Source: Candidatus Saccharibacteria bacterium CPR2
Lineage (GTDB): Bacteria > Patescibacteriota > Saccharimonadia > Saccharimonadales > QWHN01
Length of the DNA: 64,000 bases
Direction: 5' to 3'
NCBI GenBank assembly: GCA_021404905.1
Contig: QWHN01000001.1
Location: 2,162 to 66,161, forward strand
The position numbers and the translations under genes are program-made. Position 1 is the stretch's first letter. Each line of letters begins with the position of its first letter. Under the pieces are notes generated by a model. That model did not search any database. It had not been told where the DNA came from and saw nothing but the letters and a program-made list of their open reading frames with translations. Shown in pieces: positions 3,136-48,234 of the stretch.

Positions 3136-3162
3136 TAAAGTAATTATATCAAACGCTTATGC

Positions 3163-3181
3163 TTGGAGGGCCATGTGGGAT
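3163..3181. repeat. Second copy of the tRNA-Lys(CTT) 3' end (19-bp perfect direct repeat of 3334-3352)
   Basis: TTGGAGGGCCATGTGGGAT occurs at 3163-3181 and again at 3334-3352, which is inside and just past the tRNA gene. Confidence 0.9.
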
Positions 3182-3299
3182 GACGCGCCTTCGCGCTATT
3201 CCGTCGATCCAGTGCTCGAAATAAATTTCTGCGCGCTTCACTCCTTACGAACCCATCGCTATGCGATATTGGGTTAGAATATACTCAACAAATACTCCA

Positions 3300-3327
3300 A
3301 TTTCAAAATCCCTCCTTCAGAGGGATT
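3300..3327 (-). terminator. Intrinsic terminator-like hairpin after tRNA-Lys(CTT)
   Basis: Minus-strand sense AATCCCTC-tgaag-GAGGGATT followed by a T-run, 7 nt after the tRNA CCA end. Confidence 0.5.
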
Positions 3328-3334
3328 CAGAAAT

Positions 3335-3411
3335 TGGAGGGCCATGTGGGATTCGAACCCACGACACGCGGCTTAAGAGGCCGCTGCTCTAACCAACTGA
3401 GCTAATGGCCC
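3335..3411 (-). tRNA. tRNA-Lys (anticodon CTT), CCA encoded
   Basis: Reverse complement GGGCCATTAGCTCAGTTGGTTAGAGCAGCGGCCTCTTAAGCCGCGTGTCGTGGGTTCGAATCCCACATGGCCCTCCA. It has a 7-bp acceptor stem, anticodon loop CTCTTAA and T-loop TTCGAAT. Confidence 0.9.
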
Positions 3412-3516
3412 ACACTTCGCTCCGGTTTTACACCGGAGCTACGAGGGGCTATTTGTGCGAGGTTGGTTCTACCAACTGCTAAGCCCATCGAAGCTCGAGC
3501 GCAAGCGAGTGCGAAG
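3412..3516 (-). repeat. tRNA-Lys-associated 'U' element, copy 1 (directly upstream of tRNA-Lys(CTT))
   Basis: It shares ordered blocks CTTCGCA, AGCTTCG, GCCCCTCGTAG and CGAAGTG with 48148-48234. It contains the hairpin CTCCGG-tgtaaaa-CCGGAG. Confidence 0.6.
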
Positions 3517-3534
3517 TTGGGAGCTAATGGCCCT

Positions 3535-3648
3535 CGTCGGAATTCACTATCAGCCTCCGTTTGATCGAATATACTCACAAACTTCAGCTTCTCGTTATTC
3601 CTCCTCTCAATTAATCAAACAGCTTTGCTTGGTTTGATTAATTGTTTT
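3535..3648 (+). repeat. Modular ~110-nt tRNA-trailer element, copy 1 (homologous to 21576-21686, minus strand)
   Basis: Perfect 20-mer CGTCGGAATTCACTATCAGC (3535-3554), then a 30-nt variable block. Next comes a perfect 21-mer CAGCTTCTCGTTATTCCTCCT (3585-3605). A 13-bp hairpin CAATTAATCAAAC/GTTTGATTAATTG (3608-3644) plus TTTT follows. Confidence 0.8.
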
Positions 3649-3951
3649 AAAACTACCAGACCTCTTCCACTTATTTAAGAATCTGGTATTCCGGGAAGGG
3701 TAGCGGACTCTGTCATTTTCCGCTCTGAAACTTTATCACGTTACCCCTGTTTACGCAATAATTTCAGACTGGCTTATTTATGCAAAATTACGACCAATAA
3801 CAAGGAATTCAATGCTAGCCTCCACCCCTCTCATAACTATGTTCTAATGCGACATTATTACAAAAAATAGAAAATACCCGAGAATATTTAAGCATTATCT
3901 ACTTGCCTAATATTATAATTTTGTTATAATTTTGCAGAGAAAGGCACTAAT

Positions 3952-4164
3952 ATGGCACAAAAAGTAATTAAGATTGGTAGCTCTTTGGGCGTTACTATAC
4001 CCAAAAAGGAAGTCAGCGATCTTAATATTATAGCTGGCGATGAAGTGGAAGTAATAATTCGAAAAAAATTTAGCCGAGTTGCAAAACACGAAAAGCTACT
4101 TAAACAGCTGGAAGATTTTATGCACGTATACGATAAAGACTTAAAGAACTTGGCTAAAAGATAG
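3952..4164 (+). CDS. AbrB/MazE/SpoVT-type antitoxin (Phd-like partner of Doc)
   Basis: 70 aa with the swapped-hairpin motif IKIGSSLGVTIPKKEV. The stop overlaps the toxin GTG start (TAGTG). Confidence 0.8.
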   Translation: MAQKVIKIGSSLGVTIPKKEVSDLNIIAGDEVEVIIRKKFSRVAKHEKLLKQLEDFMHVYDKDLKNLAKR

Positions 4165-4547
4165 TGAAATATCTTGATGCAGAAGAAATTTTACTCATCC
4201 ATCATCAGCTAATTAAGCGCTTTGGTGGTTTACACGGCACGCGAAATTTAGAACAAATAAGATCTGTAGCTATAGCCCCAGCGCAACATGTTTTTGACAA
4301 TAAACAATATAAAAGTATTTTTGACAAAGCGTCGGTGTATGCTCGAAATATTATTCTAGATCACCCATTTTATGATGGGAATAAGCGAACCGGCATTACA
4401 ACCGCCATCATGTTTCTTATGAAAAATGACTACAAATTTAGCGCCCAACCCGGGGAAATTGAAGAATTCGCATTCAAAATTGCAGTCAACAAACTGGGTA
4501 TTAAAGAAATATCAACTTGGCTTGAGAAACACGTGTCCTCAGTTTAG
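4164..4547 (+). CDS. doc: Doc (death-on-curing) / Fic-family toxin
   Basis: Doc/Fic motif HPFYDGNKRTG. Size of 127 aa and position downstream of a small AbrB-type antitoxin fit the family. Confidence 0.9.
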   Translation: MKYLDAEEILLIHHQLIKRFGGLHGTRNLEQIRSVAIAPAQHVFDNKQYKSIFDKASVYARNIILDHPFYDGNKRTGITTAIMFLMKNDYKFSAQPGEIEEFAFKIAVNKLGIKEISTWLEKHVSSV

Positions 4548-6283: not shown

Positions 6284-7738
6284 TTAATCTAAGACATTCT
6301 CTCTTTTAAAACCAAGTTTGGTCTTTTTCCATAAAAATACATTTAAACTCAAGATTACAACGCAGCTTAAAATTAGGTACGAAGCATTGAATTTTAATTC
6401 TCCCTCTGCCCAAGGCAAACCAGCTAGCCAATCGGCAACTCGAATCATATATGTTAGCAACGCGTTAGCTGGCCAGCCAGCAAAATGTGCTAGCGGCGGA
6501 AAGATAGCCGCCACAATTCCGCCAATGAAGGTTAAAAGCATAGCCAAGGGAACAAAGGGTTGAATCAAAATATTTGAAATTAACGCCAGTGGCGAGTACT
6601 CACCGAATGTAAACGCGATAATCGGTAAAGTTAAAATTTGGGCTGAAATTGTTCCGATAAGCAAATGCCTTAGGAAGCCCGGTTCTTTTTCACCCCAAAA
6701 ATAATTATGGATTAAAGGCGCTAGAATTATAACGCCTCCGAAGGCCGCGAATGACAGATACCAACCAACATCGCCCCACACATAAGCCGGACTTAATAAA
6801 ACCGTCATAGCAGCTACAAAAACAATTAACACAACAGGGTTAATTTTTCGGCCGTAATACCAGGCAAGTAAACTTAAAACTGTCATGATTGAAGCGCGAA
6901 TCATGGATGTTCCAAAACCGCTAATTGATAAAAACGCGCCAATAAAGAATAGACTGGCAATAAGCGCTAAATATTTTGACACTTTCGACAGTGGACGCTT
7001 AATGTAACTAACTATCAATGACAGATGATAACCACTAGCAACAACCAAATGAATAAGCCCCAGCATTTTCAGCTCGTTACTAAAATCTTCAGATAAAAGT
7101 TGCTGCTGACCAACCAGATAACTCAGGCCCAATCCTGCTTGCTCTTTGGGTATAATCATTAATACTTTTCGCGAGAACCAATCTCTGATTTCTCTGCCAA
7201 TGTCACCATGCTTTATGTTTTCAACTTTGAGTAACTTAGCTCTGGAAATTGTCGCTGGAAAATTACCGAAACCGTTCCGAATTTCGCCTTCAATTTGCAA
7301 ATTATCACCACGCTTTATCTGATCTCGGGTGGACAAACTAACCCAGACATTGCCGCTCATTGGCATGTTATTAATTTTAATTTTGCTTAGATTAACACCT
7401 GTGGTTCCATTATTTTTCTCAGTGACATCGCTTGCTACTCGCCCCGTAAGGATTACCGTTTGGCCATAATATTGCCCGTACTGAGAAAAGGCGATTTGCG
7501 CGTTCGCGCCCCGCCAAAGACCAAGTAATATTCCACAGATTAATGCGACAGTCAACATCCATTTGTAACGCCAGATGGCAACTAAAATAAATAAAATGGC
7601 GGCAAGCAACAACCAAGGCAATGCGGCGAAATAAGTGGTTTTTGGATTTAGCGCTAGTGCCGTGCCAGTCAAAACTCCAGCCGATGTAACTGAGATGAAA
7701 TAAACTATATGTAAGCGCTGCTTCATGCTACGCGCCAC
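6284..7738 (-). CDS. comEC: ComEC/Rec2 DNA internalisation channel (competence domain; no beta-lactamase domain)
   Basis: 484-aa polytopic membrane protein with an N-terminal OB-like region (VILTGRVASDV...GDNLQIEGEI). Competence-domain pattern LSYLVGQQ...GLIHLVVASGYHLSLI. Confidence 0.85.
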   Translation of the reverse strand: MARSMKQRLHIVYFISVTSAGVLTGTALALNPKTTYFAALPWLLLAAILFILVAIWRYKWMLTVALICGILLGLWRGANAQIAFSQYGQYYGQTVILTGRVASDVTEKNNGTTGVNLSKIKINNMPMSGNVWVSLSTRDQIKRGDNLQIEGEIRNGFGNFPATISRAKLLKVENIKHGDIGREIRDWFSRKVLMIIPKEQAGLGLSYLVGQQQLLSEDFSNELKMLGLIHLVVASGYHLSLIVSYIKRPLSKVSKYLALIASLFFIGAFLSISGFGTSMIRASIMTVLSLLAWYYGRKINPVVLIVFVAAMTVLLSPAYVWGDVGWYLSFAAFGGVIILAPLIHNYFWGEKEPGFLRHLLIGTISAQILTLPIIAFTFGEYSPLALISNILIQPFVPLAMLLTFIGGIVAAIFPPLAHFAGWPANALLTYMIRVADWLAGLPWAEGELKFNASYLILSCVVILSLNVFLWKKTKLGFKRENVLD

Positions 7739-8462
7739 TTTCTTGTTTAGGCAGCTCTTGGTTCGGACAAGAGTAAAGAACCCGCTTCATCGCGTTAAAC
7801 TCCGAGCGCGTTACCCAAAGATAATATTTAACTTTCACGGCGATCTGCCGAGCGACATAACGGCAACGGTAGCTTTCCTCTGGCAACCATTCGGACGCGT
7901 CCGCGTCGCTCTTGTCCATATTTGTCGGTCCGTCAACTGCAAGCAAATTTAGAGGATCGTTAGCTAAATCAAACCTTTCATCAGGACTTAGGGCCTGAGC
8001 GCCTTTTTGCCAAGCGTCAGATAGCGCGACCACGTGATCTATTTGAATGTCATCGCTCGTATCTTTTCCTCTTGTGAAGAAAATTGTTTTGTTGGTGTAT
8101 GGGTCTTTTTGTAAAGTTCCAGATAGAACTACGCATAGATCTTCACCTAAAACTTTATCGCTTAAGTCTCTTTGTAAAATCCTGTTTCTGGTGTCGCAGC
8201 CATCAACCATTGCCCAACCATCACTGAAATTTGATCTTTTATAACCTTCTCGGCTGCCTCTTTCTTTTATTTCCAACTTATTCAACGCGTTGAGCGCGAG
8301 ATTTTCCGGATTAATTTGCGCCGATTGATTTTGATCCAGAGATTGCGAGGAAGATTTTTGCGTTTGATACTGCGCGTAAAATGCAAAGCCGACAATTACA
8401 CAAAGGGTTAGTATGACAAGTATGAATCGGCGCCGACGATATGTAATTATCTGATTATTCAT
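7728..8462 (-). CDS. Membrane-anchored DUF1524/HNH-type extracellular nuclease
   Basis: N-terminal TM segment (FILVILTLCVIVGFAFYA). C-terminal motif IQIDHVVALSDAWQKGA...NLLAVDGPTNMDKSD typical of DUF1524 (GmrSD C-terminal His-Me finger). Overlaps comEC by 11 nt. Confidence 0.7.
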   Translation of the reverse strand: MNNQIITYRRRRFILVILTLCVIVGFAFYAQYQTQKSSSQSLDQNQSAQINPENLALNALNKLEIKERGSREGYKRSNFSDGWAMVDGCDTRNRILQRDLSDKVLGEDLCVVLSGTLQKDPYTNKTIFFTRGKDTSDDIQIDHVVALSDAWQKGAQALSPDERFDLANDPLNLLAVDGPTNMDKSDADASEWLPEESYRCRYVARQIAVKVKYYLWVTRSEFNAMKRVLYSCPNQELPKQESGA

Positions 8463-8581
8463 TTCGATTCTTTATAATGGAATTTAGCCCAATGTTACTA
8501 CATACATCCCTCAGGAATCACAAGCAGAATCCTGGGAAAATGTCATGTTATACTGGCTTGGCGAAGTTGCGTAGGGTAAAA

Positions 8582-9316
8582 ATGGGGGTATTGAGCATGT
8601 CAGAGTTATCGGCGAATGAACGCATTATTTTAGCAATTGACACTTCGGGCATAGAAGAGGCTGAAAGATTGATGAGTTTGGCCAAAGATATCGGATCAAA
8701 ATTTGTCAAATGTGGCCTCGAGCTCTCAAGTACTATTGGTTGGCAGGGTTGTTCTGAATTGGCAGCTGAGAAAAACTTAGAATGGGTTGCTGATGCAAAG
8801 TTGGATGATATCCCAAACACGGTAGCTAAAACGGTGAGAAATATTGGATCTCTCGACCATGCGCCATTTGGAATCACCATACACACAACGTCAGGCATAG
8901 AGGCAATGAGAGTTGCTCAGGAAGAAGCAGATTCTATCAAAATGCTTGGTGTTACCGTTTTGACGTCTATCACGGATGAAGAGGCGCGCAGGCTGTATCG
9001 AGTGCCGGTAAGACAAAAGGTGATAGAGCTGGCTTATGATGCTGTAGATGCTGGGATTAAAGGTATAGTTTCGTCCCCGCTTGAGGTGGGCTTGATCAAG
9101 AACAAACCAAAAACCTCAAACCTGTTTGCTATGATCCCTGGAACACGTTCGAGCAGTGCTGACGTTCAAGATCAGGCGCGGGTTGGTACGCCAAGCGCGG
9201 CAATTAGAGATGGTGCAGATCTTTTAGTGGTCGGGCGGCAAATTACGCAAGCAGAAAATCCCACTGAGGCTTTTGAGGAGCTAATAGAAGAAATTAAAAG
9301 CTCCATCCATGAATAA
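8582..9316 (+). CDS. pyrF: Orotidine 5'-phosphate decarboxylase
   Basis: IILAIDT...KCGLEL...DAKLDDIPNTV and C-terminal LVVGRQIT motifs. The start is moved to the internal ATG at 8582, which follows a TGTTATACT -10-like box and an AGGG; the track ORF begins at 8477. Confidence 0.85.
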   Translation: MGVLSMSELSANERIILAIDTSGIEEAERLMSLAKDIGSKFVKCGLELSSTIGWQGCSELAAEKNLEWVADAKLDDIPNTVAKTVRNIGSLDHAPFGITIHTTSGIEAMRVAQEEADSIKMLGVTVLTSITDEEARRLYRVPVRQKVIELAYDAVDAGIKGIVSSPLEVGLIKNKPKTSNLFAMIPGTRSSSADVQDQARVGTPSAAIRDGADLLVVGRQITQAENPTEAFEELIEEIKSSIHE

Positions 9317-9954: not shown

Positions 9955-10443
9955 CTATAAATTAAAGTTACGTGCATGATCTAATGCTTCTTGGCAATAG
10001 AATTTTATCGATTCTGTTAATCCGTATTCTGGTTTATTGAAATCCGATGCACTAAGCCAGTGGATATCGGAATGCTCATTTGAGATTATGTGTTTGTTAT
10101 TTTTTGAACGAGCAAAATATATTAATGCAATATGCTTGTGTGGCGGATTAGCAAAATGTACGTCTACAAAATTTGGTGTGTACATAAATTTTGTGTCATC
10201 GATTTTCAATTTTGGCTTGTCGCTTAAAATTTCAACGTCGAGGCCAGTTTCCTCTTGAATTTCTCTAAATAACGCGGAATCTGTATCTTCATTTAACTCA
10301 ATATGTCCACCCATTGGAATCCATTTATTGTATTTTGGATGATTAACCAACAAAACTTTGTCATTATGAACAATAAAAACACTAACAACAAAATCATACA
10401 GTTCATGGATATGTGGCATAAATGTATAATAACATGCTCTCAC
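9955..10443 (-). CDS. NUDIX hydrolase
   Basis: Nudix box GGHIELNEDTDSALFREIQEETGL. Confidence 0.8.
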   Translation of the reverse strand: MRACYYTFMPHIHELYDFVVSVFIVHNDKVLLVNHPKYNKWIPMGGHIELNEDTDSALFREIQEETGLDVEILSDKPKLKIDDTKFMYTPNFVDVHFANPPHKHIALIYFARSKNNKHIISNEHSDIHWLSASDFNKPEYGLTESIKFYCQEALDHARNFNL

Positions 10444-21575: not shown

Positions 21576-21686
21576 CAAAGTTACAAACCAAGCGTTAGCT
21601 GTTTGTAACTTTGAAAGGAGGAATAACGAGAAGCTGGAGCAATAAAAAACATTTTTTATTGCAAAAGCTGATAGTGAATTCCGACG
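21576..21686 (-). repeat. Modular ~110-nt tRNA-trailer element, copy 2 (directly abuts the CCA end of tRNA-Gly)
   Basis: In minus-strand sense: CGTCGGAATTCACTATCAGC, then a 30-nt perfect hairpin GCAATAAAAAA/TTTTTTATTGC. CAGCTTCTCGTTATTCCTCCT follows, then the 13-bp hairpin CAAAGTTACAAAC/GTTTGTAACTTTG. Confidence 0.8.
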
Positions 21687-21761
21687 TGGTGCGAGTGGCG
21701 GGAATCGAACCCGCATCTCTTGCTTGGAAGGCAAGTATAATAGCCTTTATACAACACTCGC
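21687..21761 (-). tRNA. tRNA-Gly (anticodon TCC), CCA encoded
   Basis: Reverse complement GCGAGTGTTGTATAAAGGCTATTATACTTGCCTTCCAAGCAAGAGATGCGGGTTCGATTCCCGCCACTCGCACCA. Confidence 0.9.
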
Positions 21762-46974: not shown

Positions 46975-47700
46975 TTAGCCGTCAATAATATCAAAATTAC
47001 TATATACCTCTGTTACATCATCCAGGTCATCAAGGGCATTCATTAGCCTCATAACTTTCTCGGCAATCCCCTTATCGTTAATTGTAACAATATTTTTTGG
47101 CACATACGACAGTGATGCTTCCAAAACTTCAAGCCCAGTTGCTTTAAGACCATCCCGAACTTTAGCAAGTGCTTTGCCTTCTGTATAGACTATTAATTCT
47201 CCATCTTCTTCGTTTGCATCATCAGCACCAGAATCAAGCGCGCTTAAAATAGCTTCGTCCATACCATTCGTCACCTTTATGCGCACAACTCCCTTGCGTT
47301 CAAATTGGAAAGCCACCGCGCCAGTTTCTGCGATATTACCTCCGTTTTTACTAAACACGGTACGCACATCGGAATATGTTCTATTCTTGTTGTCGCTGGC
47401 ACACTGAACAATTACGGCTATACCGCCCGGCCCATAACCTTCATATGTCATTTCCTGAATCTGGGCGCCACCTAACTCTCCAGTTCCGCGCTTTATTGAC
47501 CGCTCAATATTGACATTTGGCATATTAGCCGTTTTTGCTTTTTCTATTGCCAACGCGAGGGTAGGGTTAAGATCTGGGTTGCCACCGCTCTTTGCGGCAA
47601 TTGCAATCGCATTGCCAAGCTTAGTGAAAAGCTGCCCACGCTTGGCGTCTGTAACGCCTTTTTTACGCTTGATTGTTGCCCATTTTGAATGCCCTGACAT
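46975..47700 (-). CDS. yebC: YebC/PmpR-family transcriptional regulator
   Basis: MSGHSKWATIKRKKG...NMPNVNIERSIKRG. Confidence 0.93.
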   Translation of the reverse strand: MSGHSKWATIKRKKGVTDAKRGQLFTKLGNAIAIAAKSGGNPDLNPTLALAIEKAKTANMPNVNIERSIKRGTGELGGAQIQEMTYEGYGPGGIAVIVQCASDNKNRTYSDVRTVFSKNGGNIAETGAVAFQFERKGVVRIKVTNGMDEAILSALDSGADDANEEDGELIVYTEGKALAKVRDGLKATGLEVLEASLSYVPKNIVTINDKGIAEKVMRLMNALDDLDDVTEVYSNFDIIDG

Positions 47701-47890: not shown

Positions 47891-47967
47891 GGGCCTGTAG
47901 CTCAGTTGGTTAGAGCAGCGGCCTTTTAAGCCGCGTGTCGTGGGTTCGAATCCCACCAGGCCCTCCA
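47891..47967 (+). tRNA. tRNA-Lys (anticodon TTT), CCA encoded
   Basis: GGGCCTGTAGCTCAGTTGGTTAGAGCAGCGGCCTTTTAAGCCGCGTGTCGTGGGTTCGAATCCCACCAGGCCCTCCA. Confidence 0.9.
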
Positions 47968-47975
47968 CGCCAAGA

Positions 47976-47999
47976 CCCGACCCTTGTGGTCGGGTTTTT
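47976..47999 (+). terminator. Rho-independent terminator after tRNA-Lys(TTT)
   Basis: CCCGACC-cttgt-GGTCGGG followed by TTTTT. Confidence 0.6.
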
Positions 48000-48127
48000 G
48001 CGTGGTATGTTTTGCGTGATTTGGTTCCACGACGCAGATTTTCCGCGAGAAAAATATGCAAGTCGTGGGTCGGTCATGACGAACTCTCGCAGGAGTTCAC
48101 TCCGAGAAAGTGAGGAAATGTGCGTTT

Positions 48128-48148
48128 ATCCCACCAGGCCCTCCACGC
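48128..48148. repeat. Second copy of the tRNA-Lys(TTT) 3' end (21-bp perfect direct repeat of 47950-47970)
   Basis: ATCCCACCAGGCCCTCCACGC is present at both positions. Confidence 0.9.
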
Positions 48149-48234
48149 TTCGCATAAAGCTTCGTGTGGCAGGCCATTTGGTCTGTCACATTTTTTATCG
48201 AAGTGTGCCCCTCGTAGTTTTAACGAAGTGGGGC
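48148..48234 (+). repeat. tRNA-Lys-associated 'U' element, copy 2
   Basis: Ordered blocks CTTCGCA, AGCTTCG, GCCCCTCGTAG and CGAAGTG are shared with 3412-3516 (minus strand). Confidence 0.6.

Follow-up and report, generated by a model that had tools for sequence, protein, structure and literature searches.

Candidatus Saccharibacteria bacterium CPR2 carries, in the 64-kb stretch of DNA analysed here (the window, from whose first letter all window coordinates count), two tRNA-Lys genes, tRNA-Lys(TTT) and tRNA-Lys(CTT). Each of them is followed by a short appendix without open reading frames (ORFs) which ends in a copy of the 3' end of its own tRNA. Judging from a covariance model match, the two appendices are homologous and represent one module that has diverged, and relatives of this module were found behind tRNA-Lys genes of other Saccharibacteria. 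The explanation that we prefer, giving it an even chance of being correct, is that both appendices are cargo-less, non-autonomous tRNA-Lys integration modules of the attL/attR displaced-fragment kind, resembling cis-mobilizable elements (CIMEs). The layout of the module, the empty sites in related genomes, the replacement of one module type by another and the variants with cargo fit such a scheme of integration into tRNA genes. They also agree with the Lys-tRNA-targeting family of mini-elements put forward in an earlier reading of the letters of this stretch (the original prediction).

Two appendices and one module family

Behind tRNA-Lys(TTT) the 21-mer ATCCCACCAGGCCCTCCACGC is present twice without a mismatch and with a start-to-start spacing of 178 nt (Table 1), as had been predicted. 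Eighteen of its nucleotides are tRNA positions 60-77, namely the last two bases of the T loop, the 3' strand of the T stem, the 3' strand of the acceptor stem, the discriminator and CCA, and these are followed by three further bases (CGC). Allowing up to three mismatches, the only further match in the window was the distal copy of the CTT locus, 3161-3181(-). No match was obtained in 100 dinucleotide-preserving shuffles, even at three mismatches, and the repeat is not expected by chance.

The tRNA-Lys(CTT) locus has the same architecture. Its 19-nt repeat (3352-3334 and 3181-3163, spacing 171) starts at the same position of the T loop, and each distal copy agrees with its own tRNA (CACCAGG for TTT versus CACATGG for CTT). 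A 9-mer of the T arm, GTCGTGGGT at 48062-48070, is placed 57 nt ahead of the TTT distal copy, and its CTT counterpart, TGGGTTCG at 3255-3248, 66 nt ahead of the CTT one. The original prediction had noted this 9-mer and its mirroring at the CTT locus correctly, and the 9-mer can now be assigned to a conserved segment that forms a helix. Of the other five tRNA genes of the window, none has a self-copy of 12 nt or more. The TTT appendix, whose neighbours are YebC and a 170-aa membrane protein, is ORF-less as had been said, the only ORFs across it being mechanical ones that read through the tRNA. By eye, the comparable ORF of a relative (L158) stands, with respect to the tRNA, in another frame. 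At the TTT locus the inner stem of the two-tier terminator is GC-rich and is followed by a T run.

Table 1. Features of the two tRNA-Lys loci, with position in the window, strand and basis
Feature	Position	Strand	Basis
tRNA-Lys(TTT), intact, CCA encoded	47891-47967	+	ARAGORN; Rfam RF00005, 76.2 bits
Proximal 21-nt core, attL-type copy	47950-47970	+	exact repeat
Two-tier terminator hairpin, outer stem CCACGC/GCGTGG taking in the CCA of the tRNA	47965-48005	+	fold
Two tandem 14-nt direct repeats TTTTGCGTGRTWTG	47996-48023	+	repeat search
Long hairpin TCCACGAC...GTCGTGGG around small hairpin ATTTTC/GAAAAT	48026-48069	+	RNAalifold, window and L158
Structured body and distal core, holding hairpin H1 GGAG/CTCC (48092-48103)	48050-48148	+	covariance model R1
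Distal 21-nt core, displaced-fragment or attR-type copy	48128-48148	+	exact repeat
Flank TTCGCATAAAG, duplicated with the core in island-bearing strains	48149-48159	+	contig comparison
Terminator-like hairpin and T run just past the distal copy	48164-48201	+	terminator scan
tRNA-Lys(CTT), intact; its last 18 nt plus 1 (3352-3334) are the proximal core	3335-3411	-	ARAGORN, Rfam
Two-tier terminator, outer stem CTCCAATTTC/GAAATTGGAG taking in CCA	3295-3339	-	fold
CTT-type module: H0 ATCGC/GCGAT, H1 GAAAT/ATTTC, H2 GCGC/GCGC; distal core 3181-3163 at its end	3161-3273	-	alignment A5, RNAalifold
Fragments of the 5' part of tRNA-Lys(CTT), upstream of the gene; membership of the module uncertain	3471-3533	-	

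The duplications might be suspected to come from assembly, as short-read graphs break at tRNA-Lys genes. The two genes have a 31-mer in common, and this is why the Logan contigs entered from the YebC side all end inside the tRNA; the opposite flank was used instead. From that side the whole TTT appendix was recovered base for base in Logan assemblies of three other runs (L086, L090 and L095), and the CTT appendix was found identically in six Logan contigs (L099-L104). Since both appendices stand in independent assemblies the duplication is real. With nine independent contigs from other runs crossing the appendices at 100% identity, an artefact is refuted and the probability left to it is practically nil.

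A pairwise MAFFT alignment of the two appendices displayed no similarity outside the tRNA parts, a result that proved misleading in view of the later match. Covariance model R1, which was built solely from three CTT-type modules of three genomes (alignment A5) and gives the CTT-type module of the window 133.8 bits, matches the TTT appendix at 48050-48148 with 30.5 bits (E 8e-6), the TTT sequence being absent from the model. It also matches L158 (E 3.5e-4), and neither the rest of the 64-kb window nor some 20 further Saccharibacteria loci gave it a match. The original prediction had read the two loci as parallel events and not as one repeat. This part has to be given up, as the loci hold diverged copies of one module and not convergent structures.

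Members of the family were found behind tRNA-Lys in at least four other Saccharibacteria genomes (L158, L134, L146 and L241), which goes against the refutation named with the original prediction, a lack of homologues in related genomes. Three of them are the genuine relatives given by a metagenome scan for orphan cores, defined as cores without the preceding invariant A58; the remaining 77 of the 80 loci returned were chance matches. In L158, terminator and body follow tRNA-Lys(TTT), and 180 nt downstream the 18 nt are copied exactly. L134 has a distal part like that of L158 about 1 kb downstream of the tRNA, and L146 has a copy of the core with one mismatch. The body of L158 resembles the TTT appendix of the window (TTGGTTCYACGACGCAG, hairpin, ATGC..AGTCGTGGGT) and, by eye, contains a tandem similar to the TTTTGCGTGRTWTG pair. 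The bodies of L134 and L241 resemble the CTT appendix (GGGTTCGTAAGGARTGA...GCAGAA, hairpin, TTCGAG...GCGTC directly followed by ATCCCAC). Moreover, a relative of the TTT flank, GCATAAGC, comes after the CTT distal copy and after repeat C2 of L158. Rfam, at gathering and at permissive thresholds, returned only tRNAs and noise and left the module unmatched.

Between the genera that carry the module, YebC and RimK share only 59-64% identity. At this protein identity neutral intergenic DNA would be unrecognisable, and the similarity of the modules is therefore not neutral. This bears on the idea that the appendices are two independent, functionless scars of ordinary islands or prophages in neutral decay. 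The displaced-fragment layout would suit such scars, and in tRNA-seeded islands old integrations commonly leave partial tRNAs behind (bioRxiv 10.1101/2020.12.28.424599). However, the two appendices share homology with each other and with modules of other genera, their stems are kept by compensatory changes and their size and order of parts are nearly equal. We disfavour this idea and consider it very unlikely.

A contig scan based on YebC gave best relatives of only 57% identity, mostly from unrelated phyla and rarely adjoining a tRNA-Lys gene, and only L002 was informative. For the YebC relatives P0003-P0005, ComEC was found upstream and no tRNA-Lys within the 2.5 kb examined. L002 (CAYNWV010000001.1, 1934-2424(-)) has an intact tRNA-Lys(TTT) between a psi-5' half and a psi-3' half with a terminator copy. 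Each half is broken by an 88-nt hairpin-rich element, in one case after position 25 and in the other in the T loop. The two copies of this element are 94% identical, and model R1 does not recognise it.

Empty sites, exchange of module types and cargo

Comparative synteny, which had been suggested as a check, revealed empty sites. In L245-L249 the same RimK-DUF192-membrane protein (about 170 aa) neighbourhood is present, tRNA-Lys(TTT) is 4-60 nt from the next gene and has an ordinary terminator, and no module is found. L001, L004, L007 and L008 are likewise without it, so that at least nine module-free tRNA-Lys(TTT) loci of Saccharibacteria were examined, of which five occupy the orthologous position. 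With RimK identities of 74-75%, the genomes with empty sites are nearer to the window than the module-bearing L158 (64%). Apart from conspecific strains, the closest genome found was the sister species L241 (RimK identity 94%), all others being at 75% or less. At tRNA-Lys(TTT), the place of the TTT type in the window, L241 carries a module of CTT type, and in L134, too, a CTT-type module accompanies a TTT tRNA. The two-tier terminator that pairs with the CCA of the tRNA was present at all module-bearing loci and absent from the empty-site tRNA of L245, which argues that this terminator arrives with the module. In these sequence comparisons the module has the behaviour of an insertion, and its site is a variable one.

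The order of genes around the loci differs as well. In related genomes it is membrane protein, tRNA-Lys(TTT), ComEC, YebC and RuvC. In the window ComEC is 39 kb from YebC and near the other tRNA-Lys gene (6284-7738 versus 46975-47700), and in L241 a 349-aa ORF and PrsW occupy the place of ComEC. These differences suggest that the genomes were rearranged, with the two tRNA-Lys loci as breakpoints.

No cargo genes are found between the repeats of the window, and cargo was found in conspecific strains (L105), L134, L158 and L241. L089, from the same species, equals the window from the 170-aa gene through the distal core, body and terminator to CTCCACGC, past which it runs into a methyltransferase gene that the window does not have. 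This gene opens a cargo of about 10 kb, represented by the 10.2-kb contig L105 and present in at least 20 samples. The products of the island include S-adenosylmethionine methyltransferases, a class-I lysyl-tRNA synthetase (LysRS)-like protein, glycosyltransferases, a DegT-type aminotransferase, an ABC-F ATPase, an APH-type kinase and an HMGL-like protein. At the other end of the island the end of the body is followed by a variant core (core', ATCCCACCAGGCCCTCCACAC, ...CCACAC) and TTCGCATAAAG, and several contigs end exactly at shared k-mers. The simplest order for the island strains (junctions J1, J2 and J3) would be tRNA-module-core'-cargo-module-core-flank, the cargo thus standing between two copies of a 197-nt unit (47963-48159 of the window). 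The unit is larger than first described, covering 47963-48159 and a terminator ending at 48191. Insertion by RecA of a circle carrying one unit would give the same module-cargo-module order.

Smaller cargo is present in other relatives. In L134 a 0.9-kb segment with a 250-aa ORF stands between the tRNA and CCTCCACG, terminator, body and core. In L158 an array of small ORFs is split by three degenerate cores, one of which has a 20-mer, ATGGCCCTCCAAGCATAAGC, common to the CTT distal copy of the window and its flank. L241 has a gene inserted inside the distal core, which is cut down to ATCCCACCAG; unrelated sequence takes the place of the acceptor/CCA part and the body is intact.

Some features of the cargo deserve mention in their own right. 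The L105 island resembles a small biosynthesis and resistance cluster of the sugar/aminoglycoside type (DegT, GT4, APH, ABC-F). Its ends (about 31-85 and 10103-10152) bear 39-nt imperfect inverted repeats, GCCCTYGARATAGGTTCRAGCTTYGTCRTAAAATYGCTC, with 34 of 39 positions matching, a score reached by none of 300 shuffles, and one of them continues into the CTCCA junction. A transposon was considered on account of these repeats and dropped, as neither a transposase nor a target duplication was found. Two different and very divergent aminoacyl-tRNA synthetase-like genes stand beside modules, a class-I LysRS-like 334-aa ORF in the L105 island and a class-II (AsnA/AspRS/EpmA-like) 286-aa ORF abutting the L241 module (8187-9047). 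Both score far below the family cut-offs and we claim no link to the module, their position being possibly a coincidence.

In the scheme that we prefer, the mechanism of recombination, its enzyme, the direction of the events and the transcription are inferred. The module would have three parts: the terminal ~18 nt of the tRNA in a copy that would now complete the working gene, its own two-tier terminator, and a body of about 110-140 nt with degenerate tRNA-Lys-like segments that fold into conserved hairpins. The distal boundary would be the displaced original 18 nt of the tRNA, and the two 18-21-nt copies would be attL and attR. The cores might be recombined by a recombinase acting in trans, or by RecA using the ~200-bp module as portable homology. 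Units of cargo and module would enter at the tRNA or at the resident distal core, that is by accretion, and the cargo may later be lost through recombination between repeated cores or modules, leaving the ~180-bp module that is found twice in the window. The body would be conserved for a role in cis, in which a folded transcript or a single strand of tRNA sense is the most probable form. The expected junction of an empty site would be GGGTTCGAATCCCACCAGGCCCTCCACGCTTCGCATAAAGCTTCG, and that of a circle or tandem GTGCGTTTATCCCACCAGGCCCTCCACGCCAAGACCCGACC. Positions 66-67 of the core (CA, AT or TG) track the adjacent tRNA and are outside the helices of the module itself, as is expected if the copies exchange with the tRNA or must complete it.

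Several results weigh against this integration scheme. The 157-bp insert has no ORF and hence no recombinase, a crude regular-expression search of the window ORFs of at least 120 aa gave no tyrosine-recombinase motif, and none is encoded in the 10-kb island. Viral-contig scans and BLAST against phages and plasmids gave no autonomous parent and no phage or plasmid relative. The module-cargo-module order was deduced from contig ends in a k=31 graph without a spanning read. The cargo junctions vary, being placed directly after CTCCA, after the core and 11 nt, or inside the core (L241), a pattern more in keeping with imprecise or homology-driven events than with a single precise crossover. Since a circle of 136-197 bp is an implausible substrate for recombination, the bare module probably does not move on its own. 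Finally, the covariation of the hairpins with a G·U bias would point to a constraint on RNA or a single strand, which is not expected of ordinary att arms.

Other candidates were tried and rejected. The viral-contig scan with both cores gave one match, the full 21-mer ATCCCACCAGGCCCTCCACGC in L109 971-991 (IMGVR_UViG_3300031772_008011), which we judged to be due to chance since the contig is GC-rich, the match is inside an ORF and no tRNA is nearby. The eleven matches to two module motifs were all chance ones, in coding regions and without a tRNA. A dif/Xer-like reading of the GCATAA flank was discarded as, by eye, the inverted TTATG arm is absent. With no reverse transcriptase or nuclease gene, we also hold as of low probability that the 18 nt resemble a retroviral primer-binding site or that the module is an omega-RNA.

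The conserved fold and its alternatives, and the surroundings of the CTT locus

In a six-sequence alignment fitted to model R1, with a doubtful row for L146, the seven predicted helices have 93.4% of cells paired and changes on both sides in 16 of 30 pairs, so that the compensatory changes which had been proposed for checking are present. The observed pairing values were reached by 0 of 500 shuffles, and controls with slid partners pair at 36-52%. All variants of H0 (ATCGC/GCGAT, ACCGC/GCGGT and ACCAC/GTGGT) and of H1 (GAAAT/ATTTC, GAAATC/GATTTC, GAAGC/GCTTC, GGAG/CTCC and GATG/CATC) are paired, and these two helices are also backed by MAFFT alignments. H2 is GCGC/GCGC or GCAC/GTGC. The inner hairpin of the TTT type is ATTTTC/GAAAAT in the window versus ATTCGC/GCGAAT in L158, with two compensatory pairs (RNAalifold, window and L158). 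The strand of tRNA sense is 93% paired versus 80% for the opposite strand, and the 22 G·U cells versus no A·C cell indicate that the fold suits the former better. This suggests that the fold is formed on the tRNA-sense strand.

A long-range helix can be drawn in two ways, as a T-stem-like GUGGG/CCCAC or as an acceptor-like GGGUY/RGCCC followed by N-CCA. The acceptor-like helix 2 (GGGUY with RGCCC) is 93% paired with no changes on both sides, competes with GUGGG/CCCAC and is lost in L241.

The fold lends support to the other half of the original prediction, a conserved tRNA-linked RNA. Taken further, the module could primarily be a gene for a structured small RNA derived from tRNA-Lys, its association with variable DNA being secondary. 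Such an RNA would have the form of the acceptor-like helix followed by N-CCA, or of a scaffold with a tRNA-identical 18-nt 3' segment. The conservation between genera at 59-64% protein identity, the pairing values and double changes given above and the G·U cells on the tRNA-sense strand only would all be expected of it. Moreover, a terminator-like hairpin is found past the TTT distal copy, and by eye similar ones are present in L134 and L002, a consensus scan placed a promoter-like site at 3306-3278(-) ahead of the CTT module, and by eye the module reads as a degenerate full-length tRNA-Lys.

However, the module is absent at the orthologous site in five relatives and at four further Saccharibacteria loci, its type is swapped between sister species and in L241 the acceptor/CCA part is replaced with the body intact. 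A strong terminator stands between the tRNA and the module, consensus scans gave no conserved promoter, and neither ARAGORN nor Rfam recognises the module. The pair counts come, in addition, from an alignment fitted to the model, and the acceptor-like helix is without changes on both sides. We therefore see the small RNA as an unlikely alternative. Both explanations can hold at once, for instance where the module is mobile and encodes a folded strand or works through one.

A related and somewhat less likely proposal is that the module is more than a scar or an att arm, and that a structured RNA of tRNA sense of about 110-180 nt with its final 18 nt identical to the 3' end of the adjacent tRNA-Lys, or the same strand as a folded single-stranded DNA, serves as a mimic of the tRNA-Lys acceptor or as a specifier of the landing site for cassettes. 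If the landing-site variant were true, it would mean RNA- or structure-specified capture of cassettes in integrase-poor, naturally competent bacteria of the Candidate Phyla Radiation (CPR), with a logic akin to attC or to bridge and omega guides.

By eye, the module can be aligned with tRNA-Lys as a degenerate full-length copy, with TA at 8-9, A26, a 5-bp 'anticodon' stem with a 2-4-nt loop, a long variable region, the 3' strands of the T stem and of the acceptor stem, and CCA. The pieces of the body are in tRNA order (D-loop-like ATTTGGTT, GCAG with a mini stem, and GTCGTGGGT). ARAGORN and the tRNA model of Rfam called only the intact tRNAs and did not recognise the module as a cloverleaf.

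These pieces raise the question of a local origin, in which tandem partial duplications of tRNA-Lys arose by slippage or unequal crossing-over, gene conversion kept the 3' copy identical, and the variability nearby reflects ordinary recombination at a conserved tRNA. Besides the tRNA order of the body, the 5' fragments upstream of tRNA-Lys(CTT), the psi-5' and psi-3' halves of L002 and the failure to find a recombinase (regular-expression search of the window, 10-kb island) are in its favour. It does not account for one family at different tRNA-Lys genes and in distant genera and not in intermediate relatives, for CTT-type modules at TTT tRNAs, for a module present twice around a 10-kb island or for a module that brings its own distinctive terminator. 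We consider a local origin improbable.

Around the CTT locus we also recorded the following. The 5' fragments are tRNA positions 1-13 (GGGCCATTAGCTC, 3533-3521) and 13-20 (CAGTTGGT, 3478-3471), placed about 60-110 nt upstream of tRNA-Lys(CTT) with the tRNA order kept, so that the intact gene is flanked by 5' and 3' pieces; no such 5' fragment is present at the TTT locus. A 112-nt non-coding motif has two copies in the window with 74% identity, 3532-3636(-) and 21584-21689(+), each consisting of a hairpin with the conserved loop AAACCAAGCnnAGCTGTTT, then GAGGAGGAATAACGAGAAGCTG, a variable hairpin and GCTGATAGTGAATTCCGACG. One copy stops exactly at the psi-5' tRNA-Lys fragment (3533) and the other exactly at the CCA end of an opposite-strand tRNA-Gly(TCC) (21687). 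Rfam gave no match for this motif, nor for an ORF-less stretch of about 300 nt (~3640-3950(-)) between it and toxin-antitoxin-like genes. The latter, a Phd/MazE-like antitoxin and a 127-aa ORF that is Doc/Fic-like by eye (3954-4547(+)), are directly upstream of the CTT locus. On the strand of tRNA-Lys(CTT), no sigma-70-like promoter could be found for this gene.

Comparison with known systems

Genes for tRNA are classic landing sites of genomic islands, and the T loop is reportedly a sublocation used by integrases (Williams 2002). To our knowledge, the gene flux in the tiny and mobile-element-poor genomes of CPR bacteria such as Saccharibacteria is poorly known. The module marks the place where conspecific strains differ by a 10-kb island of biosynthesis/resistance type, and where related genera carry other small cassettes. 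Were it no more than an att remnant, it would still point to a lysine-tRNA-specific integration system of this phylum and offer a marker for its islands. If the fold proves to be that of an RNA or of a site for single-strand recombination, the capture of genes at tRNAs would gain a new non-coding component.

Islands in tRNA genes are defined by a regenerated tRNA gene and a displaced fragment (Islander/TIGER definition, PMC4383910). Like them, the loci described here have, downstream of an intact gene, the 3' part of the tRNA repeated in direct orientation from the T loop onward, with empty sites in relatives and cargo between the repeats in other strains. Unlike them, the 'island' is here of 157 bp and holds neither a gene nor an integrase, and across genera it keeps a non-coding body with covarying hairpins.

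CIMEs and their tandem accretion at att sites have been described, for example, at the tRNA-Lys gene of Streptococcus agalactiae (PMC5704250). The likeness is in the retention of attL and attR without integration or transfer genes, in the 3' end of tRNA-Lys as target and in a second unit at the resident att site giving the order module-cargo-module, which was here deduced from contig ends. Known CIMEs are, however, kilobase-size decayed integrative and conjugative or integrative and mobilizable elements with recognisable parents, whereas here the host is a CPR bacterium and a structured module of about 180 bp has no known parent, integrase or conjugation gene.

The tycheposons of Prochlorococcus are tRNA-seeded islands of streamlined genomes (bioRxiv 10.1101/2020.12.28.424599). 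In these islands, partial tRNAs stand at the ends of successive insertions, newer units displace older ones outward, many units are without an integrase, and the host genome is small with few classical mobile elements, all of which resembles the present case. Tycheposons are, however, defined by integrases and replication modules, genes of a kind not found here, and they are not known to be described with a conserved structured non-coding module.

Integron cassettes are short and end in a recombination site that is defined by its fold and shares a core with the primary site, and non-coding cassettes occur. The module is similar in being a site at the end of a cassette, in the primacy of fold over sequence and in the core common with the primary site. 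It differs in that no IntI-type integrase gene is next to the tRNA (the neighbour is YebC), no R''/R' cores of the GTTRRRY type were seen, its ends are direct and not inverted, and overall it is not an imperfect palindrome.

Among tRNA-like and guide RNAs are the tRNA-like domain of tmRNA, YrlA, tRNA-Other of Bacillus cereus, the omega-RNA of TnpB/IscB and the bridge RNA of IS110. Like these, the module has a structured scaffold followed by a short segment identical to the target or acceptor, and an acceptor-like helix with NCCA is possible. Unlike these, it has no match in Rfam and no linked nuclease or recombinase gene (there is no ORF of the TnpB/IscB or IS110 kind in or beside it), and L241 is without the acceptor/CCA part.

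Integration into tRNA genes with displaced fragments, accretion and integrase-less remnants are thus already known. What is new is a conserved, structured and ORF-less module of about 180 bp that is tied to lysine tRNAs, is present at both isoacceptors of one genome and occurs in CPR bacteria without any linked recombinase.

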